Shown in pieces: positions 5,494-40,430 of a stretch of 40,430 bases of DNA. The translations under genes and the position numbers were made by a program. The notes beneath the pieces were generated by a model. The model searched no databases, was not told the DNA's origin, and worked only from the letters and a program-made list of their open reading frames with translations. The stretch is taken from the NCBI GenBank assembly GCA_004322435.1, contig SCTT01000025.1, forward strand, positions 1 through 40,430, read 5' to 3'. The DNA comes from a bacterium. Its GTDB lineage: Bacteria > Elusimicrobiota > Elusimicrobia > UBA1565. Position 1 is the first letter of the stretch; each line of letters opens with the position of its first letter.

Positions 5494-5511
5494 TTTCCTA
5501 ACCTAACGGCC

Positions 5512-14857: not shown

Positions 14858-15251
14858 CCTTCACCTCGAGGCTGACCTTCCGCAGCCCCGCGCCGCGGAT
14901 GAGGTCCAGGACGCCCACGATGTCGCCGTACGGGAGAGCCCTGTCGGCCGAGAGGATGACCCGCATCTCGGGGTCCGAGCGCAGGCGCTCTTTGAGGTCC
15001 GCCGTCAGCGCCTCGCGCGTGAGCGCCCGCCCGCCGATGCTGAGCGCGCGGGCCTTGTCGAAGGTGACTTCGAGCGCCTCGAGGCCGGCGCGCTCCGAGT
15101 GCCGGGCCTTCGGCACGTCCACGCGCAGGGCCTTGCGCTCGATGAGCGGCGCGGTGGCCATGAAGATGATGAGGACGACCAAGATGATGTCGACGAGCGG
15201 CGTTACGTTGATGTCGGTGATGGGCCGCGAGCCTTCGGCCAGCGTCTTCAT
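14847..15251 (-). CDS. exbD: ExbD/TolR biopolymer transport protein
   Basis: It contains ITDINVTPLVDIILVVLIIFM and is 134 aa long. Confidence 0.9.
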   Translation of the reverse strand: MKTLAEGSRPITDINVTPLVDIILVVLIIFMATAPLIERKALRVDVPKARHSERAGLEALEVTFDKARALSIGGRALTREALTADLKERLRSDPEMRVILSADRALPYGDIVGVLDLIRGAGLRKVSLEVKGGA

Positions 15252-15255
15252 CGCA

Positions 15256-15858: not shown

Positions 15859-17570
15859 TTGAACCTCCCCAGGCGCACGAGCGCCAAGGCGAGCTCCGCC
15901 CGCACGATGGGGTCGGTCTCGCGGCCGAGCATGTCCATGAGCTTACGGTACTCGTCGGCGCCGCCCAGGCGCCCCAGGTGGTAGACCGCCTCCGCGCGCG
16001 CGTACCAGTCGGTCTCGGTGGTCATCCGCCACAGGGCCTCGCGGCCGGCGAGGTTGCCCCGCTGCCAGTATTCGGCCGCGGCCATCCCCTTGACGGTGAA
16101 GGACGGGTCGTTCTGCGCCGCGTCGCCGAGCGTGAAGAGCGCCGCCGGCGAGGCCGAGAGCACGACCGACTCGAGCCCGCCCAGGCGCACCGTGAGGCTG
16201 ACGTCGCGCAGGGCCTCCTGGAAGAGCGGGAAGAAGCGGTCGTCTTTGGCGTGCCCGAGGGCCACCAGCGCGGCGGCCCGCATCGGGGGGTTCTTGCCCG
16301 AGCGCGACACGGCCTCGAGGCGGTTCTGGATGCCGAAGTCTTTGACGCCGGCGAGGCCCTCGGTCAGCAGGAATCCCAGCTCGCTGTAGCGCAGGCTCAG
16401 CATGTGACCGGTCAGCGTGGTGAGCTCCGCGAAGAGCGCGGCCGCCGAGTTCTGGCTGCCGGCCTCTTCGGGGCGCAGCGCGCTCTTTTGCTCCAAGAGG
16501 CGCAAGAGCAGCGCGTTGATGCGCGGGTCCACCAAAGTCTCCTGGGCGATGTGCTCCCGGGGCGCCGTGATGACGATGGGCTCGAGCATGAAGTCGAGGT
16601 CGGCCGTGAGACTCGAGGCCAGGCCCGGGCCGCCGGGCGTGTTGCCGGTCCCCGTGCCCCCGGGGGCGGGGACCGGCGGCGGCGCCGCCTCGCGGCGGCC
16701 GAAGATCTTGAGCGCGGCGATGGCGTATTCCGCGGAGAGGAACTCGTTGGCGCCGTCCCGGTCCAAGCGGTCGAGGAACACGTCGTAATCCTTGCCCTCG
16801 CCGTAATCGCCCAGCGCATGGGCCGCCATCGCCCGGCCGACCCAATCGGGGCTCGTGCTCAGGAACCCGCGCAGCTTTTCGAGCCCGCCCGCGCCGCCCA
16901 GCCGCGCCATCCCGCCCGCCGCGTAGACGCGCAAGAGGGGCGAGACGTCGTTTTCGGCGGCGAGCTTGAGGAGCGGCACCGCCTTCTCGGGGTGGCCCCA
17001 GGACAGCAGCGCCTCCATCGCGCCGAAGCGCACGGCGGGGTCATGGTGGGCCAGGGCCTCGTTGAGCACGCGTTCGTCCTGGAGGTCCTTGAGCCGGGCC
17101 AGCGCGATGAGGGCCGTCGCGCGGACCTCGGCCGACCGCTCCCAGCGCGCGAGGCGCACGAGCCGCTCGCGCAGCGCCGGGTCGGGGTCCGCGGCCAAAG
17201 CCTCCGCCAGTGGGACACCGGGATACAGGTAGCGGTTCCGCAGGCGGAAGCCGTCCGGCGAGCCGACCTTTAGGAGCTCCTCGAAGGGGGTGCCGGCCAC
17301 GGCCTTGAGGTCGGGGCGGATGGAGTCCGACTTCTCCAGGAGCTCGAAGAGGGCGCTTAAGACCGCCGGGTCGGCCTTGGGGACCGCCTGGGGAGCGCTC
17401 GAGGACGTCAACACGTCCATCGAATCGCCGATGCGGACCTTGGGGGGGGTCGGCAGGACTTCCGGCGGCAGGCCCAGCTTGGCGATCTCCTCCGGGGACA
17501 GCTCGGCGCAGCCGGAGCCCAGCAGGGCCGCCGCGGACAGGAGGACGGCGAGAAGGGGGAGCTTTCTCAT
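15855..17570 (-). CDS. HEAT-repeat lipoprotein, first gene of the ExbB-ExbD-TonB operon
   Basis: The signal peptide has a lipobox (LLGSGC). Multiple HEAT-like units are present (DPALRERLVRLA, EVRATALIALARL, DPAVRFGAMEAL, DPIVRAELALALVRLG). Its stop overlaps the exbB start as GTGA. Confidence 0.75.
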   Translation of the reverse strand: MRKLPLLAVLLSAAALLGSGCAELSPEEIAKLGLPPEVLPTPPKVRIGDSMDVLTSSSAPQAVPKADPAVLSALFELLEKSDSIRPDLKAVAGTPFEELLKVGSPDGFRLRNRYLYPGVPLAEALAADPDPALRERLVRLARWERSAEVRATALIALARLKDLQDERVLNEALAHHDPAVRFGAMEALLSWGHPEKAVPLLKLAAENDVSPLLRVYAAGGMARLGGAGGLEKLRGFLSTSPDWVGRAMAAHALGDYGEGKDYDVFLDRLDRDGANEFLSAEYAIAALKIFGRREAAPPPVPAPGGTGTGNTPGGPGLASSLTADLDFMLEPIVITAPREHIAQETLVDPRINALLLRLLEQKSALRPEEAGSQNSAAALFAELTTLTGHMLSLRYSELGFLLTEGLAGVKDFGIQNRLEAVSRSGKNPPMRAAALVALGHAKDDRFFPLFQEALRDVSLTVRLGGLESVVLSASPAALFTLGDAAQNDPSFTVKGMAAAEYWQRGNLAGREALWRMTTETDWYARAEAVYHLGRLGGADEYRKLMDMLGRETDPIVRAELALALVRLGRFK

Positions 17571-17646
17571 CTTCAGAATTTACCTTTTTCCACCCCCGCC
17601 GAACCCCCGGGGGGGTCTCCAAGTTGCCTGGGTTTGCAGGGTGTCC

Positions 17647-18191
17647 GGCCGTCGCGATCCAAGGCGGGTCCTGCCCGCGCGTCCGAATCCTCCGCTCCCC
17701 CGAACCCGTGAACCTTGACGGTTCCCCCGCGACGAGCGCGGGGGCCCCCTCCCACGGGGTCGCTTCGGACTCGGCCGCGCGGTCACCCGCCGTGGCTCGT
17801 CGATGGCCCAGTCTGGATTACGTCGGTATCCGCTTTTCCGTCCCGTCCGAATCAGAAAGTGAATCAACTCATCCTGGGATGAGCTAATTCCATATATATT
17901 CTCGCCGCTATTTTTAAAAAATTCGACAGTCGCAAACGCCTCGCTCCCGCCAACGGCAATGCCGGTCATTTAAGGGCCCTCTCCCGCTCGGGCGCCGGGC
18001 CGTCGGAAAGAAACGACGGGTGGCCGCAGAGGCGCGCTCGCAGCGACCCCGTGGGAGGGGGCCCCCGCGCCCGCTCTTAGGAAGCCGTTGTTCGAAGCGG
18101 GCACGCAGCGGGGGAACCGCCAGGTTCCAAGGTTCGGGGGAGCGGAGAGCACGCCCCCGCGGGCAGGACCCGCCCTCTCAACGCGACGGCC
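17647..18191. repeat. Large imperfect inverted repeat (foldback element) flanking an AT-rich core
   Basis: The left arm is 17647-17763 and the right arm is 18043-18191. The reverse complement of the left arm shares perfect blocks with the right arm: GCGACCCCGTGGGAGGGGGCCCCCGCGC (28 nt), GCGGGGGAACCG, GGTTCGGGGGAGCGGA, GGGCAGGACCCGCC and CGCGACGGCC. The right arm carries an extra insert of about 30 nt. The core includes TATATATT and TATTTTTAAAAAATT, which is unlike the rest of the contig. Confidence 0.85.
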
Positions 18192-18265
18192 GCAGCGCGT
18201 CAAACTCCGGGAACTTGGAGCGGGGGTCCCTTGAAATCCCCCGCTCCGGGGTCAATACTTAGGGC

Positions 18266-19300
18266 ATGGACCGCCGGGCCCCCCTCTTCCTGGCCGCCGT
18301 GCTGTCGGCCCTCCCCGCCCTGGCTCTCGAGGACGGCGGCCTGCCCGGCGTGGACCCTATAGAGGAAGGCGCCGAAGTCCCCTGCGCCCCGAGCGAGGGC
18401 AAGCCCAAACCGGCGGCCGCGAAGCCTTCCGACGAAGAGACCTCCCCGGACGCCGAGCCCAAGGCCGACCCCTGCCCCGGAGAGGCCGCGCCCGACGGGC
18501 GAGCCGCCGCCTCCGCGCCGGCCGCCCGGCCCGCCCCGACCGCCGCCCCGGCGCCCGACGAGCCGCGCGCGGCGCAGCGCCGGGAGCGTCAGCAGAACGC
18601 CGGGCGCAACGCGCGGCGCCAGGCGAGCGCGATGATCAACTCCCTTTCGGGCGAAGGCTCGGGAGCCGCCCCCGCCGCGGGAGCCGCTCCCCGCCCCGCC
18701 GCGCCGAACCCCGACCCCGGCGGAGTCGTCTCGGCCGCCGACTTCCGGCGCTTAAACGACATCCCCGCCGCCGCGGGCCCCAACACCCTGCGCACCGCGC
18801 CGACCCCCGCGCCGTCCGGGACCGCGCCGAAGGCCCCGGCCGCCGCCGCCCCCGCCTGGCGCCGCGCCTGGGAGGCGACCAAGGACTTCGTCGACCGGAA
18901 CACCCCCTCGCCCTACAAGCTCGCCAACGACGTCTCCTTCGAGGCCGAGAAGCGCTTCCCCAACTCCTCGAGCCACAACACCGAGCAGGACGCCTGGCGC
19001 CACGCGCGCTGGCACCAGAGGATGGTGGACTCGCTGTGCCCCGAGACCGGCCGCTCGGTGTGCGCGCCCGTGGCCGCCGGCGTGGCCCTGGCCGCGGGCA
19101 CCGTCCACGAGTTGATGGGCGCCGTCTCGGGCCAGCCCAAGGAAGAGTTCAAGATGGACATGTCGAACAACTGGAAGGGCGCGATGGCCGGCCTCCAGGG
19201 CAACGACCCCCGGCTCATCGACCGCGCCCTCTCCTCGGGCCAGCTCGTCGTCCTCACCCCCGCCGCCCCCGCCGGCGGCCCGATGGTCGCCCGCCGATGA
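18266..19300 (+). CDS. Secreted protein with a Pro/Ala-rich linker and a conserved-looking C-terminal domain (unknown function)
   Basis: The signal peptide is MDRRAPLFLAAVLSALPALA. A low-complexity region of about 180 aa is followed by a C-terminal ~130 aa domain with EQDAWRHARWHQRMV and HELMG. Confidence 0.65.
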   Translation: MDRRAPLFLAAVLSALPALALEDGGLPGVDPIEEGAEVPCAPSEGKPKPAAAKPSDEETSPDAEPKADPCPGEAAPDGRAAASAPAARPAPTAAPAPDEPRAAQRRERQQNAGRNARRQASAMINSLSGEGSGAAPAAGAAPRPAAPNPDPGGVVSAADFRRLNDIPAAAGPNTLRTAPTPAPSGTAPKAPAAAAPAWRRAWEATKDFVDRNTPSPYKLANDVSFEAEKRFPNSSSHNTEQDAWRHARWHQRMVDSLCPETGRSVCAPVAAGVALAAGTVHELMGAVSGQPKEEFKMDMSNNWKGAMAGLQGNDPRLIDRALSSGQLVVLTPAAPAGGPMVARR

Positions 19301-19620
19301 GGGCCCTCCCCCTCGCGCTCGCTCTGGCCCTGGCGGCCTGCGGCGGCGCCCCGGTGCAGGTCCTCGGCGGCCCCGAGGCTGTGGGCGCCAAGGTCTTGGT
19401 CGACGGGCGCGAGGCCGCGGTCATGGAGAAGAGCGTCTACGGCGGCGGCGACGCCGGCCCCGCCGGCCAAGTCTACGCGACCGCCCGCTTCCGCGCGCCC
19501 ACGGGCTCCCGCCGCTTCGAGGTCGTCGCCGCCGACGGGCGGCGCCTGTCGAGCACCGTCGACCTGCGCGGCGAGGCGTACCTGACCGCCGACTTCGCCA
19601 AAGGCGAGCTGCGCCGCTGA
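19297..19620 (+). CDS. Small lipoprotein, translationally coupled to the preceding gene
   Basis: The ATG at 19297 overlaps the upstream TGA as ATGA. The N-terminus MRALPLALALALAACGG has a good lipobox. It is the in-frame 3' part of track ORF 19036..19620. Confidence 0.6.
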   Translation: MRALPLALALALAACGGAPVQVLGGPEAVGAKVLVDGREAAVMEKSVYGGGDAGPAGQVYATARFRAPTGSRRFEVVAADGRRLSSTVDLRGEAYLTADFAKGELRR

Positions 19621-19680
19621 CCGTCCCCCTTGCCCCGCCGCCTCCCCGGGTGTATCTTGGGGAGGCCGTCCGGGGGTCCC

Positions 19681-21153
19681 ATGTTCGAAGCGGTCGAGGT
19701 CGGTGCGAAGGTCGAGAAGGCGGCCTATAAGAAGGAGGCCGAGAAGCTCCGGATGGAGCTTTTGACCGCGCAGAAGCGCCTGCCGGAGGCCAAGGTCCCG
19801 CTCGTGGTCCTCGTGTCGGGCGTCGAGGCCGCGGGCAAGACGACGTTCACCAACACCCTGCTCGAATGGCTCGACGCCCGCGGCGTGCAGGTCCACGCCC
19901 CTTGGACGCCCACCGACGAGGAGTCCGAGCGGCCGCCCTTCTGGCGCTGGTGGCGCTCGCTGCCCCCGGCCGGGCGCGCGGCGGTCTTTCTGGGCTCCTG
20001 GTACTCAGACCCCATCGTCGGCCGCGTGTTCAAGGAGCTCTCCGAGGCGGAGCTCGACGCCGAGCTCGAACGCATCGAGCGCTTCGAGAGCATGCTGGTC
20101 GCCGAAGGGGCCGTCGTGGTCAAGCTCTGGCTCCACATCACGAAGGCCGAGCAGAGGAAGCGCTTCAAGTCGCTTGAAGAGGACGCCGAGACGCGCTGGC
20201 GCGTGACCGAGCAGGACTGGAAGTTCCACAAGCGCTACGACAAGTTCCGCGCCGTCTCGGAGCGCGCGCTGCGCCACACCTCGACCGGCCAGGCGCCGTG
20301 GACGCTCGTCGAGGCGACCGACAAGCGCCACATGACGCTGACCGGCGTGCGCGCTGTGCTCGACGCCCTGCGCGCGCGCTTCGACGCGCCCGCGGCCCCG
20401 GCCCCGAAGCCGGCCCCCCCGCCCCGCAAGGCCTCCGGCGGCAAGAACATCCTGCGCTCGCTCGACTACACGCTCAAGCTCTCGGAGAAGGAGTACGACG
20501 GGCGGCTGGCCGAGGCCCAGGGACGCATCGGCAAGCTCACCCGGCGGATGCGCAAGGAGGGCCGCTCGCTGACGCTCGTGTTCGAGGGCGCCGACGCCGC
20601 CGGCAAGGGCGGCGCCATCCGGCGCCTGACGCGCGCGATGGACGCGCGGCTCTACCGCGTCATCTCGACGGCCGCGCCCACCGACGAGGAGCGCGCCCAC
20701 CCGTACCTGTGGCGCTTCTGGCGCGAGGTGCCGCGCGCGGGGCGCGTCACCGTCTACGACCGCTCCTGGTACGGGCGCGTCTTGGTCGAGCGCCTCGAGG
20801 GCTTCTGCGCCGCCGCCGACTGGAAGCGGGCGTACTCCGAGATCTGCGAGTTCGAGGAGCAGTTGGTCGCGGCCGGCACCATCCTGCGCAAGTTCTGGCT
20901 GGCCATCACCCCCGAGGAGCAGCTCAAGCGCTTCAAGGACCGCGAGCTCACGCCCTACAAGCAGTACAAGATCGGCCCCGAGGACTGGCGCAACCGGGCC
21001 AAGTGGGACGGCTACGAGGCCGCGGCCTGCGAGATGATCGAGAAGACGAGCACCGCCGAGTGCCCCTGGGTGCCGGTCGAGGCGGTCGACAAGGGCTGGG
21101 CGCGGGTCAAGGTGGCGGAGACGGTGGCCGAGGCGCTTAAAAGCGAGCTCTGA
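19681..21153 (+). CDS. Two-domain polyphosphate kinase 2 family protein (polyphosphate:AMP/nucleotide phosphotransferase type)
   Basis: It contains two tandem PPK2 halves. Each has a P-loop-like segment (VLVSGVEAAGKTT and LVFEGADAAGKGG) and a repeated W(R)FW, SWY and KFWLHI/KFWLAI pattern. The ATG at 19681 (MFEAVE) is preferred over the TTG at 19630. Confidence 0.85.
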   Translation: MFEAVEVGAKVEKAAYKKEAEKLRMELLTAQKRLPEAKVPLVVLVSGVEAAGKTTFTNTLLEWLDARGVQVHAPWTPTDEESERPPFWRWWRSLPPAGRAAVFLGSWYSDPIVGRVFKELSEAELDAELERIERFESMLVAEGAVVVKLWLHITKAEQRKRFKSLEEDAETRWRVTEQDWKFHKRYDKFRAVSERALRHTSTGQAPWTLVEATDKRHMTLTGVRAVLDALRARFDAPAAPAPKPAPPPRKASGGKNILRSLDYTLKLSEKEYDGRLAEAQGRIGKLTRRMRKEGRSLTLVFEGADAAGKGGAIRRLTRAMDARLYRVISTAAPTDEERAHPYLWRFWREVPRAGRVTVYDRSWYGRVLVERLEGFCAAADWKRAYSEICEFEEQLVAAGTILRKFWLAITPEEQLKRFKDRELTPYKQYKIGPEDWRNRAKWDGYEAAACEMIEKTSTAECPWVPVEAVDKGWARVKVAETVAEALKSEL

Positions 21154-31640: not shown

Positions 31641-31693
31641 GGGTCTCCCCTGGGGTTCTCGGAGGATATTAAAAGCAACGGGCCTGCCGCGGC

Positions 31694-33349
31694 CTAGAAC
31701 GTCCGGACCAAGGACACGCTCAGGTGGGAGAAGCTGCGGGGCGTGGAGATCTCGCGGCGCTCGAAGTACACCCGCAGGACGGTCCGCCCGGCGGTCCAGG
31801 AGGCGCCCAGATAGACGTTCGCCGACTCGCCGGCCGAACTCACGCGCGCGCTGGCGCGCACCGCACGCGAGGCCTCCCACTCGAGGCCCAAGGACCCCGA
31901 AGCCACCTCGAAAGGGCCGGCGAGGTTCGTGCGGCTGCGGCTGTAGGACGCCTGGACGGACGCCGCCAGGCTCGGGCGCAGCGGCCCGTCGAGGGCGGCG
32001 GTCAGGGCGTCCGACACCGTCAAGAGGCCCGCGCCGGGCACGCTCTGGCGGGCGTGCTCGTAGCGGGCGCTCGACTGGAAGCCGCGCCGGTTCGCGCCGT
32101 TGGCCGCCAGCGTCCCGCGGTGCGTGCGCTGCGCGCCCCCGCCGCCCAAGGCCTCGGAGCCGGCGGTCTCGAGCTCGGCCGTCAGGGTCCGGCCCGTGCG
32201 CGGGGTGAGCACGCCGCGCAGCGCGGCCCCGTCGCTGCGGGTGGTCTCCCCGCCCGCCCCTTCCGCCCACCCGCCGTTGACGCTCTGCTGGAAGGAGAGG
32301 CGGCGCTTGGGGAACTCCTCGCGGACGGAGAAGGCCTCCGAGAGGCTGCGGGAGCGCCCGCCGGCGTGCGACTGGCCGGCGCTTAAGGAGTTGGTCAGGC
32401 CGCCCCAGCGCCGCTCGGAGTTCGAGAGCAGGCCCAGCTGGCTCGAATCCGACTGGTCCTCGGAGAGGTTGTTGCGCGCGAAGTCGTTCGAGTAGGCGAG
32501 TTCATTGGCCCAGCCGCGAAACTTGAGCGGCAGGCTCCGGACGGCCAGATTCGCCGTCACGTCCTCCTGAAACGTGACCCCTTGGACCTTCTGGGCGAAC
32601 GCCGAAGAGCGCAGCGAGAAGAACTGCAGTCCGAGCGCCTTCTTGGTCCCCGTGCGCACCTCGAGGTCCCCGCGCCGCGTCTCGTTACGGCGCGGCCCCT
32701 GGACCCCGGTGAGGTCGGTGACCTCATTGCGGTCCCGGTCCAGGCTCACGCGCAGCGGCCCCCGCACCCAGGCCGCGCTCTCGCGGGCGTTCTCGGCGCG
32801 CTCCCGGACCGCCCCCGAAGACAGCGGGTCGTCGCGCGTCGCGAACTGGCGCACGAAGTTCACCGAGGGCAGGCCCGGCGGCGACATCCCCCCCGAGAAG
32901 CCGTAGCCGCCCGAACGGGAGACCCGGCTCGGCGCGTCGGCCGCCGCGGCCTGCTCGGTCTGGCTCCAAGAGTAGTTCGGGGCGAAGTGGGCGTAGCGCC
33001 GGAGCGCGAAGGGGAAGAGGTCCCCGCGCGCGGACCAGGACAGGGACTTCTGCGCGGGGGACTCGGTGTTCACGGCCTGGCTGACGTTGAAGCCGTCCTT
33101 AAAGGCCGCGTTCGTGCGGAGCTCCCCGGCCAGCGGATGGACGAGGGGCCCCTGGGCCGAGACGTCGTAGGCCTGCGACCACTGCGAGCGCCGGCGCGTG
33201 CCCGTCGGCGTCTGCAGCGCGATGTCGTCGAAGCTCCAGGCCAGCGACCCCGAGCGCCAGAACAGGGGCTCAGCCGCGGCGTCGGCCGCGAGGGCGAAGG
33301 CGAGGAGGCTGGCGATGGTTCGTCTCAAGGGGTCCTTCCGGCATGTCAA
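31694..33349 (-). CDS. Outer-membrane beta-barrel (porin-like) protein, last gene of the cytochrome operon
   Basis: It has a signal peptide (RRTIASLLAFALAADAAA) and an alternating beta-strand-like composition rich in S/G/R/Y/F. The C-terminus VSLVRTF ends in Phe, the OMP signature. The TTG at 33349 overlaps the cytochrome stop as TTGA. An alternative TTG at 33328 has a GGAAGGA RBS. Confidence 0.7.
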   Translation of the reverse strand: MTCRKDPLRRTIASLLAFALAADAAAEPLFWRSGSLAWSFDDIALQTPTGTRRRSQWSQAYDVSAQGPLVHPLAGELRTNAAFKDGFNVSQAVNTESPAQKSLSWSARGDLFPFALRRYAHFAPNYSWSQTEQAAAADAPSRVSRSGGYGFSGGMSPPGLPSVNFVRQFATRDDPLSSGAVRERAENARESAAWVRGPLRVSLDRDRNEVTDLTGVQGPRRNETRRGDLEVRTGTKKALGLQFFSLRSSAFAQKVQGVTFQEDVTANLAVRSLPLKFRGWANELAYSNDFARNNLSEDQSDSSQLGLLSNSERRWGGLTNSLSAGQSHAGGRSRSLSEAFSVREEFPKRRLSFQQSVNGGWAEGAGGETTRSDGAALRGVLTPRTGRTLTAELETAGSEALGGGGAQRTHRGTLAANGANRRGFQSSARYEHARQSVPGAGLLTVSDALTAALDGPLRPSLAASVQASYSRSRTNLAGPFEVASGSLGLEWEASRAVRASARVSSAGESANVYLGASWTAGRTVLRVYFERREISTPRSFSHLSVSLVRTF

Positions 33350-35115
33350 TGGCAGCCCGCGGTCGTCGAGCAGCTGGCTCGGGCATAGGCCCCGGGGGCC
33401 GGCGTCCAAAGGGTGAGCCCCTCGGCGGTGCCGCGATAGGCGACGGGGTCCGTCGTGGTGACGATGAGCCGGGCGCGGGTGAACCCGTGCGGGATTTTGG
33501 CATGGCAGCTCATGCAGCCGACCCCGCGCCCCGTATGGCTCTTGTGGTAGTTCTTCGACCCGCTCGAGAAGGCCGTCGCGCTCGCGCCCTGCGTCGCCGC
33601 GGCGGAATAGGCCGACTCGGCGTGGCAGCGGAAGCACAGGTGGCCGGCCGAGTTGCCGGACGTGCCGGTCTGCGCCGTCCACTGGCCGCGCAGGACCCGC
33701 GCGTTCGCGGCCCCGTGCACCCCGCGCGGGTCGGCGTCGGACTCGGAGCCGTGGCAGTCGGAGCAGGTCATCACGCTCTGCGAGGTCCACGGCGAGACGT
33801 AGGCCGACGCGGCGGGCGGCGCCGTGCGGGCCTTGCTCGCCGCGCCCGGGACGCCGACGTTGTGGTACGAGGGGTTGGCCGGGTTGAACTCGATGGCCTG
33901 GTCGGTGGCGCCCGTCGGCGGGGTGTTCGAATAGGCGTAGGAGGAATGGCACTTGAAGCAGAGCTGGTACTCCTTGAAGCTCGTCGTGTTGGTGAAGGGC
34001 TGGCGCGTGTAAGAGCTGGGCGCCGTGAACGGCGTGCCCCCGTAGCTGGGCTCGGCCCCCCACTGGCCGAGCAGGACCTGCCCGACGGCGTTCGAGCCGA
34101 CGGCGTGGGTGCCGGTCTTGGCCTGGTGCGGGTTATGGCAGTCCCAGCACTCGGCGTGCCGGGCGCCGTTGCCGAGGTTCGAGGCGTCGGTCTCGGGGTT
34201 CTTGTGGAGGCCGCTCTTCGATTCGGTGGGATGCTTGTAGGCCTTCGCGAAGGCCGCCTTGACGTTCTTCGCGCCGGTGAGCGGCGGGGAGCCGTGGCAG
34301 CCGTAGCAGGTGGCCTCCTCGGCGCCGCGCAGGATGTAGGCCTGGGCCGGGTTCGCCCCGTGCGTCTGGTGGCAGCTCCGGCAGGAGTACTCGCCCACCG
34401 TGGTCGCCGCGCCGCCGGGCGGCGTATAGGCTTTGTTGCTCGTCGCGTGAGCGCTGGCCGTCCACCCGGTCTTCTGGTGGCAGGTGGTGCACAGAGCCGC
34501 GTTCGCGTTGGACTTGACCAGGAACTTCCCGTTCGCGTTGTCGTGCGGGTCGTGGCAGGAGGTGCATTCGACGCGGTTCGTCTCGCCGTACACGCGCACC
34601 TTGTCGCCGGCGGGCGGCAGGACGATCTCGGGGTTGGTGCCCGGCTGGGTGGGCGGGCCGGCGCCGGGCTTCACGTCATAGAGCACCGGGTGGTCGTTCG
34701 AGAGGTCCTTGCCGATGACGGCGGAGGCCGACAGGCTCCCCTGCACGGCGATGGGGGAGGGCAGGTTGTAGACCGCGCCCAGCGCGGTGAGGCCGTCGTG
34801 GCAGGACAGGCACAGCTTCGAGCGGCTGCCCTGCAGGTCCGTCATCGTCGGGGCCGCCATGCCGAGGTAGTTGTTGAGATAGTTCGAGGAGTAGAAGGTG
34901 AAGGTCTCCGCCGAGTCGGCGCGGCCCCAGAGGCTCTGGACGCGCGCGGGCTGGTGGACCGCGTGGCAGAACACGCAGGAGCCCTTCTCGCTGACGGCCC
35001 GGGGGCCGGTGGTGGCGCTGTCGGCGGAGAGGTCGTGCTTTGAGTCGATGACCGAGAGGGCCCCGGCCGGCGGGACGAGGAGGACGCAGAGGGCGAGGGC
35101 GGCGGCGCGTTTCAT
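33346..35115 (-). CDS. Secreted multiheme cytochrome c (11 CxxCH motifs plus a terminal CX5CH)
   Basis: The ATG at 35115 (MKRAAALALCVLLVPPAGA) gives a signal peptide. The CxxCH motifs are CVFCH, CLSCH, CTSCH, CTTCH, CRSCH, CYGCH, CWDCH, CFKCH, CSDCH, CFRCH and CMSCH. The protein ends in CSTTAGCH. The start overlaps the NHL gene stop as ATGA. Confidence 0.88.
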   Translation of the reverse strand: MKRAAALALCVLLVPPAGALSVIDSKHDLSADSATTGPRAVSEKGSCVFCHAVHQPARVQSLWGRADSAETFTFYSSNYLNNYLGMAAPTMTDLQGSRSKLCLSCHDGLTALGAVYNLPSPIAVQGSLSASAVIGKDLSNDHPVLYDVKPGAGPPTQPGTNPEIVLPPAGDKVRVYGETNRVECTSCHDPHDNANGKFLVKSNANAALCTTCHQKTGWTASAHATSNKAYTPPGGAATTVGEYSCRSCHQTHGANPAQAYILRGAEEATCYGCHGSPPLTGAKNVKAAFAKAYKHPTESKSGLHKNPETDASNLGNGARHAECWDCHNPHQAKTGTHAVGSNAVGQVLLGQWGAEPSYGGTPFTAPSSYTRQPFTNTTSFKEYQLCFKCHSSYAYSNTPPTGATDQAIEFNPANPSYHNVGVPGAASKARTAPPAASAYVSPWTSQSVMTCSDCHGSESDADPRGVHGAANARVLRGQWTAQTGTSGNSAGHLCFRCHAESAYSAAATQGASATAFSSGSKNYHKSHTGRGVGCMSCHAKIPHGFTRARLIVTTTDPVAYRGTAEGLTLWTPAPGAYARASCSTTAGCH

Positions 35116-36107
35116 GGCACGGGCTCCTTCAGGTACTGGAATATCTGGACGCGGGCGTTGTGGGTGTCGGCGACGAGGAGGCGGTCGGCGGCGTCGACGA
35201 AGGCCCCGCCGGGGAGGTTGAACTCTCCGGGGCCTCCCCCGGCGCGGCCGACGAAGAGCAGCAGCCCGCCGGCGCCGTCGAAGACCTGGAGGGCCTCGAA
35301 GGCCCCGTCGACGAGGTAGGCGTGCCCGTCCGAGTCGAAGGCCAGGCCGCGCGGCCGGGCCAGGTAGCCGGGGCGGTTGCCGGACTCGCCGAAGGAGGCG
35401 ACCGGCCGGCCGTCTGAGTCGAAGGCTTGGACCCGGAAGTTCCCCGAGTCGCACACCCACAGGCGCCCACGGCCGGCCTCGTACCACAGGTAGGTCGGGA
35501 AGTTGAACTCGCCGGGCCCGCGGCCGCGGCGCCCGAAGGAGGCCAGGTAGACGCCCGAGAGGTCGTAGAGGGAGACGCGGTGGCCCGCGGCGTCGGCGAC
35601 ATAGAGCCGTCCGCCGCCCAGGGCCAGCCCCACGGGCCGGCCCAGCCCGGCCGGGTCGCCGCGCAGCTCGCCCGTCACACGGCCGGCCGGGTCGAGGATG
35701 AGGACCTTGGCCGACCCCGAGTCGGCCACGAAGAGGCGCCCGTCCTCGGCCGCCGCCACCGCCACGGGGCTCGTCAGCGGGGTCCCGTCGCTCGGCAGCC
35801 AGCGCCCCCGCCCGCTCGCCTCGTCGTAGCGGAAGACCCCCCGGGCCCCGGGGTCGGCGACCCAGACGGTGCCGGCCCGCGCGGCGAGGCCGGTGGGCTG
35901 CACCAGCCCGCCCGGGACGCGCGCGCCCGGGGTCGGGTCGTCGACGCCCAAGAGCGTCCGGGCGAGCCGCCCCCAGCGCCCGGCGGCGGCGGCCTGCCGC
36001 GGGCCGGCGAACTCTCCCACGAAGTGCAGCCGCGCGGGCTGCGGGGCCGCCGGCCAGTCGAGGGCGGCGGCGGGGACGAGCGCCAAAAGGAGGGCGAGGG
36101 CCTTCAC
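35112..36107 (-). CDS. Secreted NHL-repeat beta-propeller protein (paralog 2)
   Basis: The GTG at 36107 (VKALALLLALVPAAA) gives a signal peptide. Repeated NHL-type blades are present (GLAARAGTVWVADPGARGVFRY, RLFVADSGSAKVLILD, GRLYVADAAGHRVSLYD, RLWVCDSGNFRVQAFD, HAYLVDGAFEALQVFD, RLLVADTHNARVQIFQY). It is close to 37394..38452 over the C-terminal blades. Confidence 0.85.
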   Translation of the reverse strand: MKALALLLALVPAAALDWPAAPQPARLHFVGEFAGPRQAAAAGRWGRLARTLLGVDDPTPGARVPGGLVQPTGLAARAGTVWVADPGARGVFRYDEASGRGRWLPSDGTPLTSPVAVAAAEDGRLFVADSGSAKVLILDPAGRVTGELRGDPAGLGRPVGLALGGGRLYVADAAGHRVSLYDLSGVYLASFGRRGRGPGEFNFPTYLWYEAGRGRLWVCDSGNFRVQAFDSDGRPVASFGESGNRPGYLARPRGLAFDSDGHAYLVDGAFEALQVFDGAGGLLLFVGRAGGGPGEFNLPGGAFVDAADRLLVADTHNARVQIFQYLKEPVP

Positions 36108-36481
36108 GGCTCCTCCATGAGGGCCGGGCCGAGGACCGGGTCGGCCAGGGCCTGGCGCAGCGCGCGGCGCAGGCGCCAGGCGGTGGCGATCTTGACCCGC
36201 AGGCGCTGCGAGAGTTCGGCGCAGGAAGGCTCCCCGTCGAGCATCAGGCGGGCGGCCCGGTGCCAGGCGGCGAGCGGCAGATGGGTCCGCGCGAGCGGCG
36301 TGCCGGTGAGGTCGTTGAAGGCCCGGCCGCAGGCCAGGCAGCGGAGCTTGCGCCGACCCGACGCGTCGGCGTTCATGAACAGCCCGCAGCGCGGGCTCGC
36401 GCAGCGCGGGCAGCGCAGCCCCTCGGGCCAGCGCGCCCGGCGCAGGCGCGCGAGGAACCGCTCTTCGAAGCCTTCGTCCAC
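36104..36481 (-). CDS. Stand-alone IS1595-type transposase N-terminal module (Zn-ribbon plus HTH), no DDE domain; candidate DNA-binding regulator
   Basis: The pattern FLARLRRARWPEGLRCPRCASPR...LRCLACGRAFNDLTGTPLARTHLPLAAWHRAA-LM...ELSQRLRVKIATAWRLRRAL matches the conserved N-terminus of IS1595-family transposases: RWPNG-x-CPxCG...CxxC...FS-x-TAGT...T...PL..W, then an HTH and YKTAW. The GTG at 36481 has a GGAGG RBS 6 nt upstream. The track start at 36508 is TTG. The stop overlaps the NHL start as GTGA. Confidence 0.7.
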   Translation of the reverse strand: MDEGFEERFLARLRRARWPEGLRCPRCASPRCGLFMNADASGRRKLRCLACGRAFNDLTGTPLARTHLPLAAWHRAARLMLDGEPSCAELSQRLRVKIATAWRLRRALRQALADPVLGPALMEEP

Positions 36482-36562
36482 GGCCAACCTCCGGGGGTAC
36501 AACCTCAAACGGAACGTCGCGGGCCGAAAAGACCCCGGTCTCCCGGGGTCTCTCCTTACGGA

Positions 36563-37204
36563 TTACCGGTCGTGGCAGGCCAAGCAGCGGTCGCCCGAGC
36601 GGAGGATCTTGGAGGACGCCTCGCTCGAGTGCATCGAGTGGCAGCTCGTGCAGCCGACGACCCCGCCGGTCTCCGTCTTGACCTTGGCGGCGGCGCTGGC
36701 CGGGGCGCCGGGGTAGTCCGTGCGCAGCGCGGCGAACCAGCCTTCCGTGCCGAACGGGACCACGACGCCGACCGGGTGCTTCCCGTGCAGGTCGCGCCCG
36801 AAGTTCTTGGTGTTGGCGGCCATCACGACCGACCCGCCGAGCGTCGTCTGCCCGTCGTGGCAGGACAAGCAGCGGCCGGAGTTGGTCTTCACGAAGTCCG
36901 CCGCCGAGAGGAAGCGGGTGTCGCCCGCGCCCAGCGTCATGCCGACGCTCGGATTGGCGGCGTCGTAGACGACCCAGCCGGTCGTCGTCGGAGCGCTGCG
37001 TTTCCAGATCTGCACCACGTCCGCGGCCTTGTGGGCCGAGTGACACATGCCGCAGGACCCGCCGTACGTGTAGGTGTACGTGCTCGTCCCGTTGAAATAT
37101 CCCGTGCTGAAGTCGTGCTTCGTCCCCGCGACCTTGAGTCCCTCGGCCCGAACCGGGGCGCCGAAGAGGGTCACGAGGAAGAGTCCGGCGATGAGTGCTT
37201 TCAT
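36563..37204 (-). CDS. Secreted tetraheme cytochrome c
   Basis: The signal peptide is MKALIAGLFLVTLFGAPVRA. The CxxCH motifs are CGMCH, CLSCH, CTSCH and CLACH. The N-terminal module KHDFS...CGMCHSAH parallels KHDLS...CVFCHAVH in the 11-heme protein. A GAGGAGAG RBS is present. Confidence 0.88.
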   Translation of the reverse strand: MKALIAGLFLVTLFGAPVRAEGLKVAGTKHDFSTGYFNGTSTYTYTYGGSCGMCHSAHKAADVVQIWKRSAPTTTGWVVYDAANPSVGMTLGAGDTRFLSAADFVKTNSGRCLSCHDGQTTLGGSVVMAANTKNFGRDLHGKHPVGVVVPFGTEGWFAALRTDYPGAPASAAAKVKTETGGVVGCTSCHSMHSSEASSKILRSGDRCLACHDR

Positions 37205-37252
37205 TTCTGTTCTCTCCTCACTACGTAGTTTGGCGGCTAGCCGACAGGCTAA

Positions 37253-37272
37253 ATGGCAACGATGGTTCCGGA
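37253..37272 (-). promoter_or_regulatory. Candidate sigma-54 (-24/-12) promoter upstream of the tetraheme cytochrome operon
   Basis: The minus strand reads CCGGAACCATCGTTGCCA. The GG and GC are at the canonical spacing (GG-N10-GC) and the -12 element is TTGC. It matches the consensus TGGCAC-N5-TTGCW at GG, A, C and TTGC. It lies about 50 nt upstream of the ATG at 37204. Confidence 0.45.
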
Positions 37273-37327
37273 GCCCGATGTCCGCCGCTTTCGGCCCGAA
37301 GACCCCTCAGAACACGCCGGACGGGGA

Positions 37328-37372
37328 GCAAAAGGCGCGCGCGGCCCGGGAGAACGCCGGGCCGCGCGCGAC
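37328..37372 (-). terminator. Rho-independent-like terminator after NHL paralog 1
   Basis: A 14-bp GC stem pairs 37336-37349 with 37357-37370 (CGCGCGCGGCCCGG / CCGGGCCGCGCGCG) around a 7-nt loop. On the minus strand it is followed by CCTTTTG. It sits about 25 nt after the stop at 37394. Confidence 0.6.
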
Positions 37373-37393
37373 GAGGCGCGATAACGCGCGCGC

Positions 37394-38452
37394 TTACTTG
37401 TAGGCCGTCTCCGGGACCTTGATGTATTGGAAGACCTGCAGGCGCGCGTTGCCGGCGTCCACCAGGTAGATCCGGTCCGCGGCGTCGATGAAGAGCCCGG
37501 CCGGCAGGCTCAGCTCGCCGTCGCGGGCGCCGGGAGCGGCGAAGTAGAGCAGCAGCTTGCCCTGGCCGTTGAAGATCTGGACGCGGTTGAACACCGCGTC
37601 CACCACGTAGACGTTCCCGTCCGAGTCCGTGGCCACCCCGCGCGGCCGGGCCATGTAGCCCGGACGGTCGCCGTTCTCGCCGAAGCCGAACTTGATCTTC
37701 CCGTCGGGCGAGAAGATGTGGATGCGGCCCGCCACCGGGTCGGACTCGTAGATGGAGCCCTCCTTGTCCACCCAGAGGTTGGCCGTCATCCCCAGCGCCG
37801 CCTCGTCCTTGCCCCCGCGCAGGAACTCGCGCAGGAATTTTCCCTCGGGCGAGAGCGCCACCACGCTGCGCCGCCCGGCGTCGAGGACGAGGACCTCGCC
37901 CTTGGGCGACCAGGCCGCCGCCGCGGGGCGCCCGAAGGTCCCCTCGCCCCCCAGCGCCTCCGTCTTCCAGCGGAATTTGCGGTCGGGGCCGAAGCACTTG
38001 AGCGACGCGTCGCCGGAATCGGCGACGTAGAGGTTGCCGGCCGGGTCGGAGGCGGCGCCGGAGGGGCTGACCAACGCCCCGGCACCCTCCCCCGTGAACT
38101 TCTCATCGGTGCGCGCCGACAGGTCCAGCACGTGCACGGCCCCCTGGGCGGTGTCCGGCAGCAGCACGCGCCCGCGGGCGTCGACCCAGACGCCGTAGGG
38201 GCGGTCGAAGAGCGCCGCCGACGAGTCCCCGCCCAGCACGGCGTCGGAGAGCTTCGACAGGAACCCGCGCTTGCGGCCGCGCAGGTCGTCGATGCTGCGG
38301 ACGGTGCGCACCCAGCGGATGCGCGTCGGCTCGGGCGGCGTGGGGAACTCGAGCTGGGGGGCCTTGGGCTCCTCGGCGGGCTTGGCGGCGACGGCGGCCC
38401 CGGCGCGGACCGCGGACAAGGACAGCAGGACGGCGAGCAGTGGAGTCTTCAT
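37394..38452 (-). CDS. Secreted NHL-repeat beta-propeller protein (paralog 1)
   Basis: The ATG at 38452 (MKTPLLAVLLSLSAVRAGAA) gives a signal peptide. NHL blades are present (NLYVADSGDASLKCF, EVLVLDAGRRSVVAL, SIYESDPVAGRIHIF, NVYVVDAVFNRVQIF, RIYLVDAGNARLQVFQY). The start overlaps the upstream stop as ATGA. Confidence 0.85.
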   Translation of the reverse strand: MKTPLLAVLLSLSAVRAGAAVAAKPAEEPKAPQLEFPTPPEPTRIRWVRTVRSIDDLRGRKRGFLSKLSDAVLGGDSSAALFDRPYGVWVDARGRVLLPDTAQGAVHVLDLSARTDEKFTGEGAGALVSPSGAASDPAGNLYVADSGDASLKCFGPDRKFRWKTEALGGEGTFGRPAAAAWSPKGEVLVLDAGRRSVVALSPEGKFLREFLRGGKDEAALGMTANLWVDKEGSIYESDPVAGRIHIFSPDGKIKFGFGENGDRPGYMARPRGVATDSDGNVYVVDAVFNRVQIFNGQGKLLLYFAAPGARDGELSLPAGLFIDAADRIYLVDAGNARLQVFQYIKVPETAYK

Positions 38453-40430
38453 TTTTCGTGGCAGACCTCGCAGTGTCCGGGCTCGAAGGTGAGGAGCTTG
38501 GGTTTTGCGCCCGCGTGCGGGTCGTGGCATGAGGCGCAGTCGAAGGGCTTGTCCTTGCGCCGCGGGTCGGCCTTGCCCTCCTTGGACGTGGAGTGCCCCG
38601 CCACGGGGTGGTTGTTCTTGAGGCCGACCTCGTGGCAGGCGAAGCAGACGCCGTCCAAGGCGTCCTTCATCAGCGCCGGGCGGCGCCGGGCGTGGGGGTC
38701 GTGGCAGGCCACGCAGTCGCCGCCGGCGAAGGGCGCGTGCACGACGGCGAGCTCTCCCTTCTTGCGGAAGTCGGAGTGGCAGGTGAAGCAGGTCTTCTCG
38801 GGGGTCTCCTTGAGGGCGGCCTTGGCGTCGGCGCCCGTCGGCGCGTGGCACATCTCGCAGGAGCGCGAGCCGAAGGGCACATGCGGCTTGCCGCCGGCGA
38901 TGAGCTTAGGCTGCTCGCCCGCGTGCGGGTCATGGCAGGCCAGGCAGGAGCCCGCGAACTCGGACACGCCGAAGTGGGCCTTCTTGAGCGGCTCGTCGGC
39001 CGGGGTGTGGCAGTTGAGGCACAGCTCCTTGGCGGGCTGGAGCAGCAGGTGCGGCTCCTTAGAGGCGTGGGGCTGATGGCAGGTCGCGCAGTCCCCGTCT
39101 ACGAACGGCGAGTGGAGGACCGGCTTCTTGAGGCCGGCTTCCCGGGCCGGATGGCAGGACAGGCACAGCGGCTTGTACTCCTTAAGGAGCTTCTTGGGGT
39201 CTTGGGGGTCCGCGTGGCAGGCGGCGCAGCGCCCCTCGGCCACCGGCTTGTGCGCGCCCTCGGCCCGCGTCAGCTCCGCCGCCTTCTCCTTGTGGGCCGC
39301 GAAAAAGGCGTCCCCGTCGCCGGCCTCCGCCTTCTTGGCCGGGCCGAACCAGCCGGCCCCGGCCCCGCCCGCCGACAGCGCGAGGAGCAGCGCCGCGGCG
39401 GCGGCCTTGATGCCGAACTTCTCGAGGCGCCGGCGCAGCGCGTCGCGCCCGATGCCAAGGACCTGGGCCGCCTTCTGGTGGTTGCCGTTCGCGCGCGACA
39501 GGGCTTCTTTGACCATGGCCTTCTCCATCTCCTCGAGGTTGAGGCCGCCCTCCGGGGCGGCCGGGGCCGGAGCGGCGGGAGCCCGCTGCGGGCGGAGCTC
39601 GGTCTCCCCCAAGATCAGCATGCGCTCGAGGGTGTTGCGCAGCTCGCGGACGTTGCCGGGCCAGGAGTGCTCCCGGAAGGCCGCCAACGTCTCCTCGCTG
39701 AACGCCGGACGCGGCCGGCCCAGCTCGCGGCACAGGCGGCCCAAGATGAGGTCGGCCAGGGGCCGGATGTCCTCGCGCCGCTCCCGCAACGGGGCCAGCC
39801 GGATGGTGAGGACGTTGATGCGGTAGTAGAGGTCGGTGCGGAAGCGCCCCTCGGCCACGGCCTTCTCCAGGTCCTCGTTGGTGGCGGCCAGCACGCGCAC
39901 GTCCACCACGACGTCCTCGGTCCCCCCCACGCGCATGAAGGTCTTGTCCTCGAGCACCCGCAGCACCTTGGCCTGCAGGCCCTGCGGCATGTGGCCGATC
40001 TCGTTTAAGAACACCGTGCCGCCGTCGGCCGACTCGAAGATGCCCTTCTTGCGGGCCAGCGCGCCGGTGAAGGCCCCTTTCTCGTAGCCGAAGAGCTCGC
40101 TTTCGAGGAGATGCTCCGGGATGGCCGTGGCGTTGACCTCGAGGAGGGGCTGGTGCGCCCGCGCGCTCTCGTAGTGGATGGCCCGGGCCAGGCGGTCCTT
40201 GCCGCAGCCGGACTCCCCGAGGATGAGGACGTTGCCCTGCGGGCTCGCGGCGATCTTGCGCGCCATCCCGAGGGCCTCCCGCATCGAGGGGCTCTCGCAG
40301 ACGATGGAGTCGAAGTTGTACTTGTCGCGCCGCTTGCGATGCGTCTCGGCCAGGCGGGTGCGCAGCTGGGCGGTCTCGAGGACGCGCTCCAAGGTGATCT
40401 TGAGGCCGCCAAGCTGCAAGGGCTTCGAGA
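38449..40430 (-). CDS. NtrC-type sigma-54 enhancer-binding protein fused in frame to a TM/signal-anchor segment and an 11-heme cytochrome c domain (5'-truncated at the window edge)
   Basis: The frame is open to base 40430. The first residues, ..SKPLQLGGLKITLERVLE, look like the end of a receiver domain (KP). The AAA+ sigma-54 interaction domain has GESGCGKD, ESELFGYEKGAFTGA, VRVLAATN and NVRELRN. A Fis-type HTH follows (HQKAAQVLGIGRDALRRRLEKFGI). With no stop, the frame then runs into the hydrophobic AAAAALLLALSAGGAGAGWF (nt 39346-39405). Eleven CxxCH motifs follow (CAACH, CLSCH, CATCH, CLNCH, CLACH, CEMCH, CFTCH, CVACH, CFACH, CASCH, CEVCH) in c7/c3-like H-x-PF-x-G-x-C-x-x-CH-x-PH repeats. 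Confidence 0.75.
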   Translation of the reverse strand, partial: SKPLQLGGLKITLERVLETAQLRTRLAETHRKRRDKYNFDSIVCESPSMREALGMARKIAASPQGNVLILGESGCGKDRLARAIHYESARAHQPLLEVNATAIPEHLLESELFGYEKGAFTGALARKKGIFESADGGTVFLNEIGHMPQGLQAKVLRVLEDKTFMRVGGTEDVVVDVRVLAATNEDLEKAVAEGRFRTDLYYRINVLTIRLAPLRERREDIRPLADLILGRLCRELGRPRPAFSEETLAAFREHSWPGNVRELRNTLERMLILGETELRPQRAPAAPAPAAPEGGLNLEEMEKAMVKEALSRANGNHQKAAQVLGIGRDALRRRLEKFGIKAAAAALLLALSAGGAGAGWFGPAKKAEAGDGDAFFAAHKEKAAELTRAEGAHKPVAEGRCAACHADPQDPKKLLKEYKPLCLSCHPAREAGLKKPVLHSPFVDGDCATCHQPHASKEPHLLLQPAKELCLNCHTPADEPLKKAHFGVSEFAGSCLACHDPHAGEQPKLIAGGKPHVPFGSRSCEMCHAPTGADAKAALKETPEKTCFTCHSDFRKKGELAVVHAPFAGGDCVACHDPHARRRPALMKDALDGVCFACHEVGLKNNHPVAGHSTSKEGKADPRRKDKPFDCASCHDPHAGAKPKLLTFEPGHCEVCHEK

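Follow-up and report, generated by a model that had tools for sequence, protein, structure and literature searches.

The 40,430-nt stretch of contig SCTT01000025.1 (assembly GCA_004322435.1), hereafter the window, carries on its minus strand, between 31.7 and 40.4 kb, a cluster of genes for multiheme cytochromes, NHL β-propellers and a large outer-membrane β-barrel, which is probably the Elusimicrobia version of the omcE-type nanowire/porin-cytochrome cluster, placed under a dedicated two-component σ54 switch. A preliminary description of the same DNA had read it as an outer-membrane electron-transfer cluster that combines multiheme cytochromes with a large barrel, and as such it is supported. 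The conduit architecture itself is already published. What appears to be new here is the phylum, a barrel family found only in Elusimicrobia, an upstream heme-c kinase with its NtrC-type regulator, a conserved σ54 promoter, the fusion of this regulator to a cytochrome, and a gene for a Zn-ribbon/helix-turn-helix (HTH) protein within the operon. What is said below on where the products reside, whether they polymerise, how the fusion is processed, what signal is perceived and which way electrons move is inferred from these data.

Organisation of the cluster

Open reading frame (ORF) calls and searches of Pfam and NCBIfam gave seven minus-strand genes between 31.7 and 40.4 kb, one fewer than the eight co-directional genes previously counted, and these are arranged as two units. 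Unit 1 consists of a regulator-cytochrome fusion gene (>40430..38449, truncated at its 5' end by the end of the window), encoding an NtrC-type σ54 activator, a signal-anchor and an 11-heme MtrA-like cytochrome, followed by the gene of a first NHL propeller (NHL1, 37394..38452). Unit 2 runs from an OmcE-family tetraheme cytochrome (cyt4, 36563..37204) through a Zn-ribbon/HTH protein (ZnHTH, 36104..36481), a second NHL propeller (NHL2, 35112..36107) and an 11-heme cytochrome (cyt11, 33346..35115) to the outer-membrane β-barrel (31694..33328). The profile searches proposed in the preliminary description returned PF00158, PF02954 and the NHL family PF01436. The rest of the window, whose G+C content is about 72%, holds unrelated housekeeping genes.

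A strong terminator-like signal and a promoter of the −24/−12 type set the two units, already proposed, apart. The 189-bp gap after NHL1 holds the terminator-like hairpin (37336..37370, minus strand; a 14-bp all-GC stem with a 7-nt loop, followed by CCTTTTGC), then a σ54-type promoter element for unit 2, CGGAACCATCGTTGC (37256..37270, minus strand). In the orthologous locus L007, a hairpin of other sequence stands at the equivalent site after unit 1, as read by eye from the alignment. A scan of 30-40.4 kb against Rfam found no element, and a σ70 promoter scan of the same interval returned no sites.

Within the units, gene coordinates confirm the ATGA and GTGA start/stop overlaps noted earlier: ATGA between the fusion gene and NHL1, GTGA between ZnHTH and NHL2, and ATGA between NHL2 and cyt11. 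A further TTGA overlap, claimed for the barrel gene, is probably wrong: the start backed by a ribosome-binding site (GGAAGGA) is TTG 33328, 17 nt past the cyt11 stop, in agreement with the public gene call P0001 (544 residues), and the barrel orthologues start 5-18 nt past the cyt11 stop. The most likely start of the ZnHTH gene is GTG 36481, with the ribosome-binding site GGAGG, as in P0173 (125 residues).

OmcE-type cytochromes

The tetraheme cytochrome had first been taken for a small periplasmic carrier; it is instead a homologue of OmcE, and the MtrA-like component of the cluster is the domain fused to the activator (38452..39354; match to 6R2Q_A, E=3.9e-14). The cyt4 protein, of 213 residues with a signal peptide and four CXXCH motifs, aligns over its full length (residues 6-212 on 7-231, E=1.9e-13) with 7TFS_A, the OmcE filament of G. 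sulfurreducens (PMC12954529), and it also matches 9YUQ_N, from the OmcE bundle of D. soudanensis WTL (E=1.2e-10). All its heme ligands align with those of OmcE, that is the four CXXCH motifs and the distal histidines H30, H58, H142 and H192. On the strength of this homology, cyt4 is a candidate extracellular filament subunit.

The 589-residue cyt11 protein (11 CXXCH) is itself headed by an OmcE-like module. Its residues 5-215 match 7TFS_A (E=5e-31) as a tetraheme module in which all heme ligands are kept, and the remainder is a 7-heme extension recognised by PF22113, an MtrC/MtrF domain II/IV-like family (44 bits against a cut-off of 30). All the Elusimicrobia cyt11 orthologues share this 11-heme, OmcE-headed design, and no lipobox is conserved among them. 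With an OmcE-like head and a 7-heme body, cyt11 may be the base or tip protein of OmcE filaments. It is a concrete candidate for anchoring or capping the OmcE polymer, a point listed as an open question by the authors of the filament structure.

At the very C-terminus of cyt11 (33346-33372, minus strand), a C-X4/5-CH motif lies right at the stop codon, as CSTTAGCH in the window, CSTSSCH in L007 (~5510-5534) and CTTSSCH in L009 (upstream ~9940); more distant orthologues end in a conserved TNAGGYDP. The motif is a possible, atypical twelfth heme site, judging by its sequence.

Does the locus need a filament at all? A plain porin-cytochrome conduit of the Mtr/Pcc/Uet kind, with cyt4 and cyt11 docked as monomers on the outer face of the barrel and with the MtrA-like protein as the wire running through it, lies on the unlikely side in our assessment. 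It would account for the MtrA-like domain, for the match of cyt11 to MtrC domain II/IV and for a barrel of MtrB-like size, and the Uet model proposes exactly this role for a tetraheme and an undecaheme cytochrome. Moreover, OmcE-like tetrahemes are widespread and not all of them need polymerise (bioRxiv 10.1101/2025.10.22.684050). On the other side, cyt4 keeps every heme ligand of OmcE in a full-length alignment and the composition of the cluster equals that of the minimal nanowire cluster, neither of which is proof of polymerisation.

A large β-barrel restricted to Elusimicrobia

The last gene of unit 2 encodes a protein of 544-551 residues, 544 with the start at TTG 33328, whose C-terminus reads ...LVRTF, with a terminal Phe. 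The AlphaFold2 model (mean predicted local distance difference test score, pLDDT, of 75) contains about 25 confident strands over residues 93-542, implying a barrel of about 26, and leaves residues 1-101 unplaced (pLDDT <50). A strand count had been suggested as a check, since a lumen too small for a cytochrome would have spoken against a conduit. A barrel of some 26 strands, as predicted, would be geometrically wide enough for a multiheme cytochrome, so this objection does not apply to the model. In a Foldseek search, the highest TM-score was obtained with MtrB (6R2Q_B, TMq 0.47); the other matches were generic (TonB-dependent receptors, LptD, ushers), and the likeness is at the level of the fold only. 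The protein has no match in Pfam or NCBIfam.

The family comprises ten word-index homologues and 38 HMMER matches among 1.84e9 representatives, and every member with a phylum label comes from an Elusimicrobia metagenome-assembled genome. When related loci were sought with an alignment of close barrel sequences, the genomes recovered came from two species, both Elusimicrobia.

The N-terminal ~100 residues of the barrel protein (33046-33328, minus strand) are among the most conserved of the family (W31, F33, D34, Q52, Y54 and others) and may form a plug or a partner-binding segment. One family member, P0162 (1075 residues), has a B12-binding/radical-SAM-like N-terminal half, either a real fusion or a gene-call artefact; the distant locus L011 also has a B12/radical-SAM gene adjoining the cluster.

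The paired NHL propellers

Both propellers match PF01436 (NHL1 with E=1e-19, NHL2 with E=3e-28) and both have a signal peptide. NHL1 is translationally coupled to the fused cytochrome through its ATGA overlap, and the NHL proteins of the related loci fall into two orthologous types. In an alignment of 14 NHL proteins no His, Cys or Met is invariant, and the conserved residues are the structural positions of the NHL repeat. A scaffold or chaperone role is therefore argued for, over that of a redox enzyme.

The alternative, in which the system would not serve extracellular electron transfer, with the propellers as catalytic subunits of a cytochrome-fed periplasmic redox enzyme whose substrate is imported through the barrel, appears very unlikely. 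Enzymes that join a propeller with cytochromes do exist, such as cd1 nitrite reductase and hydrazine synthase, and the propellers show weak SGL, arylesterase and phytase-like Pfam matches. The missing invariant His, Cys or Met led us to reject a catalytic propeller; furthermore, the cytochromes encoded alongside are homologues of OmcE, MtrA and MtrC, and a barrel of ~26 strands is far larger than substrate porins.

Conservation of the locus

Co-conservation in relatives had been named beforehand as a test of the electron-conduit interpretation, and the gene order of the window recurs in no fewer than five further assemblies of Elusimicrobia (L001, L007, L009, L012 and L013), with core synteny also in the distant locus L011. 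Given this kept gene order, the arrangement is far beyond chance. Barrel identity to the window is 43-67% where measured (L001 and L007-L009). By tblastn, the values for L007, L009 and L001 are respectively 64%, 63% and 44% for the barrel, 79%, 86% and 49% for cyt4, and 76%, 81% and 75% for ZnHTH; the fusion protein is 82% identical in L009 and 75% in L001, with a partial match in L007. The ZnHTH proteins of L012 and L013 are ~50% identical to that of the window.

The locus extends OmcE-type machinery to Elusimicrobia, a phylum of groundwater for which no such machinery had been reported, which suggests mineral or partner-linked electron exchange in its uncultured members. The locus family, with kinase, activator, promoter and structural genes contiguous, is a compact and regulator-complete cluster, which makes it attractive for heterologous reconstitution.

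Additional cytochrome genes were seen at some of these loci. L001 has, 3' of the barrel, another gene for an OmcE-like tetraheme, at 51% identity to cyt4 (11739-12416), and a gene for a 734-residue protein (12477-14681). In L011, a second tetraheme-NHL-11-heme set without a barrel (14799-20649) lies beside ResB/CcsA cytochrome maturation genes. Upstream of the kinase gene, on the opposite strand, L009 (420-1016, minus) and L001 (144-737, minus) carry a tetraheme gene of ~198 residues, weakly OmcE-like (phmmer E~1e-9 against cyt4).

A σ54-type promoter element and probable two-component regulation

The regulator half of the fusion has the domains of an NtrC-type activator. The σ54-interaction AAA+ domain and its lid (39601..40305, minus strand; PF00158, E=4e-65; PF25601, AAA_lid_14, E=7e-19) include the GAFTGA motif in the translation, and a Fis-type HTH_8 DNA-binding domain follows (39415..39537, minus strand; PF02954, E=3e-12). 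Full-length orthologues (L009, L001, L013) have a REC domain at the N-terminus, which in the present locus lies outside the end of the window.

The element CGGAACCATCGTTGC upstream of unit 2 is of the GG-N10-GC type and is invariant in an intergenic alignment of three loci whose flanks have diverged. In all six loci with the regulator, a GG-N10-GC/TTGC element stands 67-75 nt upstream of the cyt4 ATG, with the pattern (C/T)(C/A/G)GG-N10-(T)TGC. The element of L013, TGGCTGAAGTGTTGC, is near consensus, and a similar one, TGGCAGAAACGCTGC, is found 107 nt upstream in the distant L011, which has only a REC protein. The σ54 control already suggested for this DNA gains support from the element in six orthologous loci together with the GAFTGA-bearing NtrC-type activator, from which we infer promoter function.

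The regulator orthologues follow the gene of a HAMP-HisKA kinase, which has one CXXCH in its periplasmic loop, in a PSCARCHG-like context, in four of the four loci examined (L009 1119-2534; L001 904-2286; L012 3638-5125; L013 4156-5631). In the present locus the kinase gene lies outside the window. Since every orthologous kinase has this single periplasmic CXXCH, the protein probably senses redox state through a c-type heme.

The −24 GG is overlapped by an inverted repeat, CGGAC-N6-GTCCG (window ~37262-37285, minus strand), of which L007 and L001 have a perfect copy and the window a partial one.

An activator fused to a cytochrome

The full-length orthologues of the fusion protein have 763-768 residues, and the fusion is encoded in a single continuous reading frame in the window, L009, L001, L013, P0011 and P0012 (at least six assemblies; in L009 and L001 as a single high-scoring pair in tblastn). 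The HTH_8 domain ends in ...LEKFGIK, and a hydrophobic segment, the internal signal-anchor AAAAALLLALSAGGAGA (39355..39405, minus strand), abuts it directly, with no linker. After a predicted signal-peptidase I site, AGA↓GWFG (the arrow marking cleavage), comes the cytochrome half with 11 CXXCH motifs. In addition to its match to MtrA, it scores 98 bits against TIGR03508, the model of the DmsE decaheme family, which is below the cut-off of 192, and it has 11 hemes, not 10.

The nearest homologues of the cytochrome half are free-standing cytochromes of 313-329 residues, 50-56% identical to it, and in each context examined (L003-L006, L011 and L012) an overlapping or closely adjacent NHL gene comes next. 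In L012, a close relative, the kinase-regulator pair ends at a stop codon, after which come a 144-residue ORF without Pfam match (6582-7016) and a separate 329-residue cytochrome with a signal peptide; the cytochrome is also separate in L011 and other lineages. The hydrophobic segment of the fusion aligns with the signal peptides of the free-standing homologues, and the match runs across the cleavage site into the start of the mature protein. The free-standing sites read LQA↓GWFG (LQA↓GWFGDKK in P0015) and LHA↓GLFD, and the junction reads AGA↓GWFGPAKK in the window, ASA↓GWFG in L009, SWA↓GWFG in L001 and AGA↓QWFG in L013. This small-x-small (AXA-type) site persists in all six fusions while the sequence of the h-region drifts.

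Because the signal-peptidase site seen in the free-standing homologues has been retained at the junction, the fusion is most likely a cleaved polyprotein rather than a single-chain redox sensor. The cytochrome b/c1 precursor FbcH of Bradyrhizobium is a precedent for such a polyprotein. The dedicated heme-bearing activator of the preliminary description is thus retained in part: the fusion is real and conserved, and the heme-bearing activator as such is doubtful, since the signal-peptidase site is retained and relatives encode the two halves separately. We found no description of an activator-cytochrome fusion in literature searches.

An uncleaved fusion would be a single-chain transmembrane redox sensor, that is a one-component σ54 activator, gated by REC as well, whose 11-heme domain signals through the membrane helix. 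This remains the less favoured of the two readings, with an appreciable chance of being right. The reading frame has stayed open in six or more assemblies despite divergence down to 75% identity, the architecture is the sole one of its kind seen (HTH_8 is carried by only two of the 120 best homologues of the cytochrome domain), and membrane-anchored transcription factors exist, ToxR and CadC being examples. The polyprotein reading is favoured by the canonical signal-peptidase site with Pro/Gly in the c-region of every fusion, by the nature of the nearest homologues of the cytochrome half, which are soluble carriers of electrons and come with an NHL gene, and by the presence in L012 of the same operon with separate genes; furthermore, the separate heme-c kinase already provides a sensor, and no linker leads from the recognition helix to the membrane helix.

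A more ambitious proposal, which we put forward as tentative and would not expect to hold as a whole, is that the fusion is a functional coupling device and not the accident of a lost stop codon, either as a pro-protein or as an uncleaved sensor, and that cyt11 is perhaps the base or tip of OmcE filaments. In the first form, a membrane-inserted pro-activator may be freed only after export of the cytochrome and the signal-peptidase cut, perhaps with the help of a site-2 protease; transcription of the nanowire operon would then be tied to successful cytochrome secretion. In the second, the uncleaved protein may be the first enhancer-binding protein to read the periplasmic redox state directly, via its 11-heme domain. 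The fusion would be of interest in either case: if processed, as a rare bacterial polyprotein joining a transcription factor to a secreted protein, and if unprocessed, as a new kind of transmembrane enhancer-binding protein.

A transposase-derived gene inside the operon

The ZnHTH protein (125-134 residues), predicted to be cytoplasmic, combines a transposase Zn-ribbon (PF12760, 27.4 bits against a cut-off of 25.4) with a match to positions 1-53 of the 215 of the IS1595 transposase model NF033547. It has no DDE catalytic domain, and no terminal inverted repeats are present. Its ~60 closest family members have 97-158 residues, and all the named ones are from Elusimicrobia. Across 25 sequences there is little or no variation in four Cys and in the motifs RW..G and F.DLTGT...LPL..W. 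The AlphaFold2 model (pLDDT 90) shows a helix, a three-stranded ribbon and a bundle of three to four helices; a Foldseek search with it returned nothing significant (best E=0.23), the matches being mostly HTH regulators and zinc ribbons, which is consistent with such a protein and not diagnostic.

The gene lies between cyt4 and NHL2 in L001, L007, L009, L012 and L013 as well, and it is absent from the distant L011. Its product keeps 75-81% identity between loci where that of the barrels is only 43-64%, and in the most distant locus compared by tblastn it is conserved as well as or better than any structural protein of the operon. The embedded transposase-derived DNA-binding gene pointed out earlier is thus real, holds the same operon position in the conserved loci, and was not found described in literature searches. 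From its domains and conservation, the most plausible view of ZnHTH is that the DNA-binding module of a transposase has been domesticated as a regulator.

That the ORF is instead a decaying insertion-sequence remnant without function is most improbable. Its relatives are annotated as IS1 or IS1595 transposases, and its matches in Pfam and NCBIfam are to transposase N-termini. A decaying remnant is difficult to reconcile with 75-81% identity beside barrels at 43-64%, with the near invariance of the four Cys and DLTGT, with a constant position between the tetraheme gene and NHL2 that includes a start/stop overlap, with the lack of a DDE domain and of inverted repeats, or with a confidently predicted fold.

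Palindromes occur in the 5' untranslated region of unit 2 (GGCTAGCC) in the window, L007 and L009. They are more likely RNA hairpins than a ZnHTH operator, because their sequences differ between loci while ZnHTH is 75% identical.

A model for the locus and its weak points

In the model that we favour, the heme-c kinase would sense the periplasmic redox state and phosphorylate the regulator, which would in turn open the σ54 promoter of unit 2. The cytochrome half of the fusion would be exported by means of the internal signal-anchor and cut off by signal peptidase I at the AGA/GWFG junction, which releases a soluble cytochrome; the activator would be left tail-anchored or be released further. 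The MtrA-like cytochrome would take up electrons in the periplasm and plug the barrel from inside as a trans-barrel wire. At the outer face, cyt11 could use its OmcE-like module, with the heme/His interface of the subunit, to base or cap a cyt4 polymer. Each propeller, translationally coupled to one large cytochrome, would be its periplasmic chaperone or scaffold, and ZnHTH may act as a co-regulator made from within the operon.

Several points weigh against an omcE-type cluster under σ54 control. The signal peptides of both propellers are without Cys and thus have no lipobox, unlike the lipoproteins of the Desulfuromonadia clusters. The barrel has no sequence link to MtrB or to any solved protein: a 22-sequence profile searched against the PDB sequences gave no match with E<=10. 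The HTH, joined without a linker to a membrane helix, looks sterically awkward for a DNA-bound hexamer. The gene rpoN was not seen in the window and lies outside it. The pattern TGGCAC-N5-TTGC, with at most two mismatches, has 19 matches in the window against 30 expected, and the count alone is not above chance; since motif counts are uninformative in so G+C-rich a window, positional conservation was used instead. Finally, the physiological roles of OmcE filaments are themselves disputed (PMC11077965, PMC13194489).

Neighbouring genes

Between the barrel stop and the ATG of a gene of the cystathionine-γ-synthase family, a pyridoxal phosphate (PLP) enzyme, lies CGGCAGGCCCGTTGC (31675-31689, minus strand), whose counterpart ACGGCAACCCCGTTGC is kept in L007, L008 and L009. 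It is a near-consensus σ54 −24/−12 element with a small hairpin, and the PLP enzyme gene may therefore be σ54-dependent; whether the element belongs to the system is uncertain. The gene itself was considered and rejected as a member of the system: L007-L009, the closest relatives, have it downstream of the barrel, whereas L001, L012 and L013 do not.

Far from the cluster, positions 11000-14000 form an island of lower G+C content (58-63% against ~72%), which may have been acquired horizontally. It holds a HEAT-repeat ORF (11321-12919, minus strand) and an ORF without family match (12912-13886, minus strand).

Relationship to described systems

The locus resembles MtrCAB of Shewanella and the Pcc and Ext conduits of Geobacter in a putative periplasmic cytochrome that matches MtrA, a barrel of ~26 strands with MtrB as its nearest structural match, and a candidate surface cytochrome with an MtrC domain II/IV-like part. 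It differs from MtrCAB and Pcc in that the barrel has no sequence homology to MtrB/PioB or OmbB, the outer cytochrome is not a lipoprotein, the MtrA-like domain stays below the cut-off of TIGR03508, and NHL propellers and an OmcE-type subunit are present.

Cytochromes accompanied by NHL proteins, proposed to stabilise an outer-membrane cytochrome complex, are known from D. ferrophilus IS5 (DFE_0448-0451 and DFE_0461-0465), where DFE_0450 and DFE_0464 are predicted to be extracellular and where deletion of those cytochromes did not abolish Fe(III) oxide reduction (PMC5815863, PMC9769857). In contrast to the present locus, no β-barrel or regulator fusion is reported there, a comparison made by description only. 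A Geoalkalibacter locus has an MtoA-like cytochrome, an OmcE-like cytochrome and two NHL proteins.

Closer in architecture is the Uet cluster (uetABCDEFGHIJ) of Ca. Tenderia electrophaga and some Gallionella (bioRxiv 10.1101/2022.05.06.490989; PMC10734462), which includes the tetraheme UetA, the NHL proteins UetH and UetI, the 11-heme UetJ and the barrel UetC, of 28 predicted strands (bioRxiv 10.1101/2022.05.06.490989). Both systems have a tetraheme, two NHL proteins, an undecaheme and a large barrel, and a like conduit logic has been proposed for Uet; the likeness is by architecture only. The triheme c7 proteins UetD/E/G, the peptidyl-prolyl isomerase (PPIase) UetB and the cupredoxin UetF have no equivalents in the window or in the orthologous loci. 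The gene order also differs, and the present locus adds an MtrA-like 11-heme protein and dedicated regulators.

The regulatory part resembles the NtrC-family enhancer-binding regulators and the c-heme kinases of the Geobacter type, with which it shares the REC - AAA+(GAFTGA) - HTH_8 order, a HAMP-HisKA kinase and a −24/−12 promoter. It differs in that a transmembrane segment and an 11-heme domain come after the HTH, an arrangement for which we found no precedent in literature searches or, outside Elusimicrobia, among the best 120 homologues.

The minimal omcE cluster, reported from five phyla of which Elusimicrobiota is not one, is described as OmcE together with two multiheme cytochromes, a pair of β-propeller proteins and a large β-barrel (bioRxiv 10.1101/2025.10.22.684050). 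The duplicated cytochrome-plus-NHL module, which the preliminary description had thought new, is therefore not so: it is already present in this minimal cluster and in Uet, the D. ferrophilus and Geoalkalibacter loci likewise pair NHL proteins with cytochromes, and the module is widespread. Indeed, the component list of the omcE cluster of Desulfuromonadia (7TFS, 9YUQ) is identical to that of the locus reported here, the barrels being compared by description only. Compared with that cluster, the locus has propellers that lack a lipobox and a barrel whose family can be detected in Elusimicrobia alone, it has no glycosylation island, and it adds a heme-c kinase with its σ54 regulator, a regulator-cytochrome fusion and the ZnHTH gene. 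One of its multiheme cytochromes, cyt11, also carries an OmcE-like N-terminal module of its own, a trait that its Geobacter counterpart may share.

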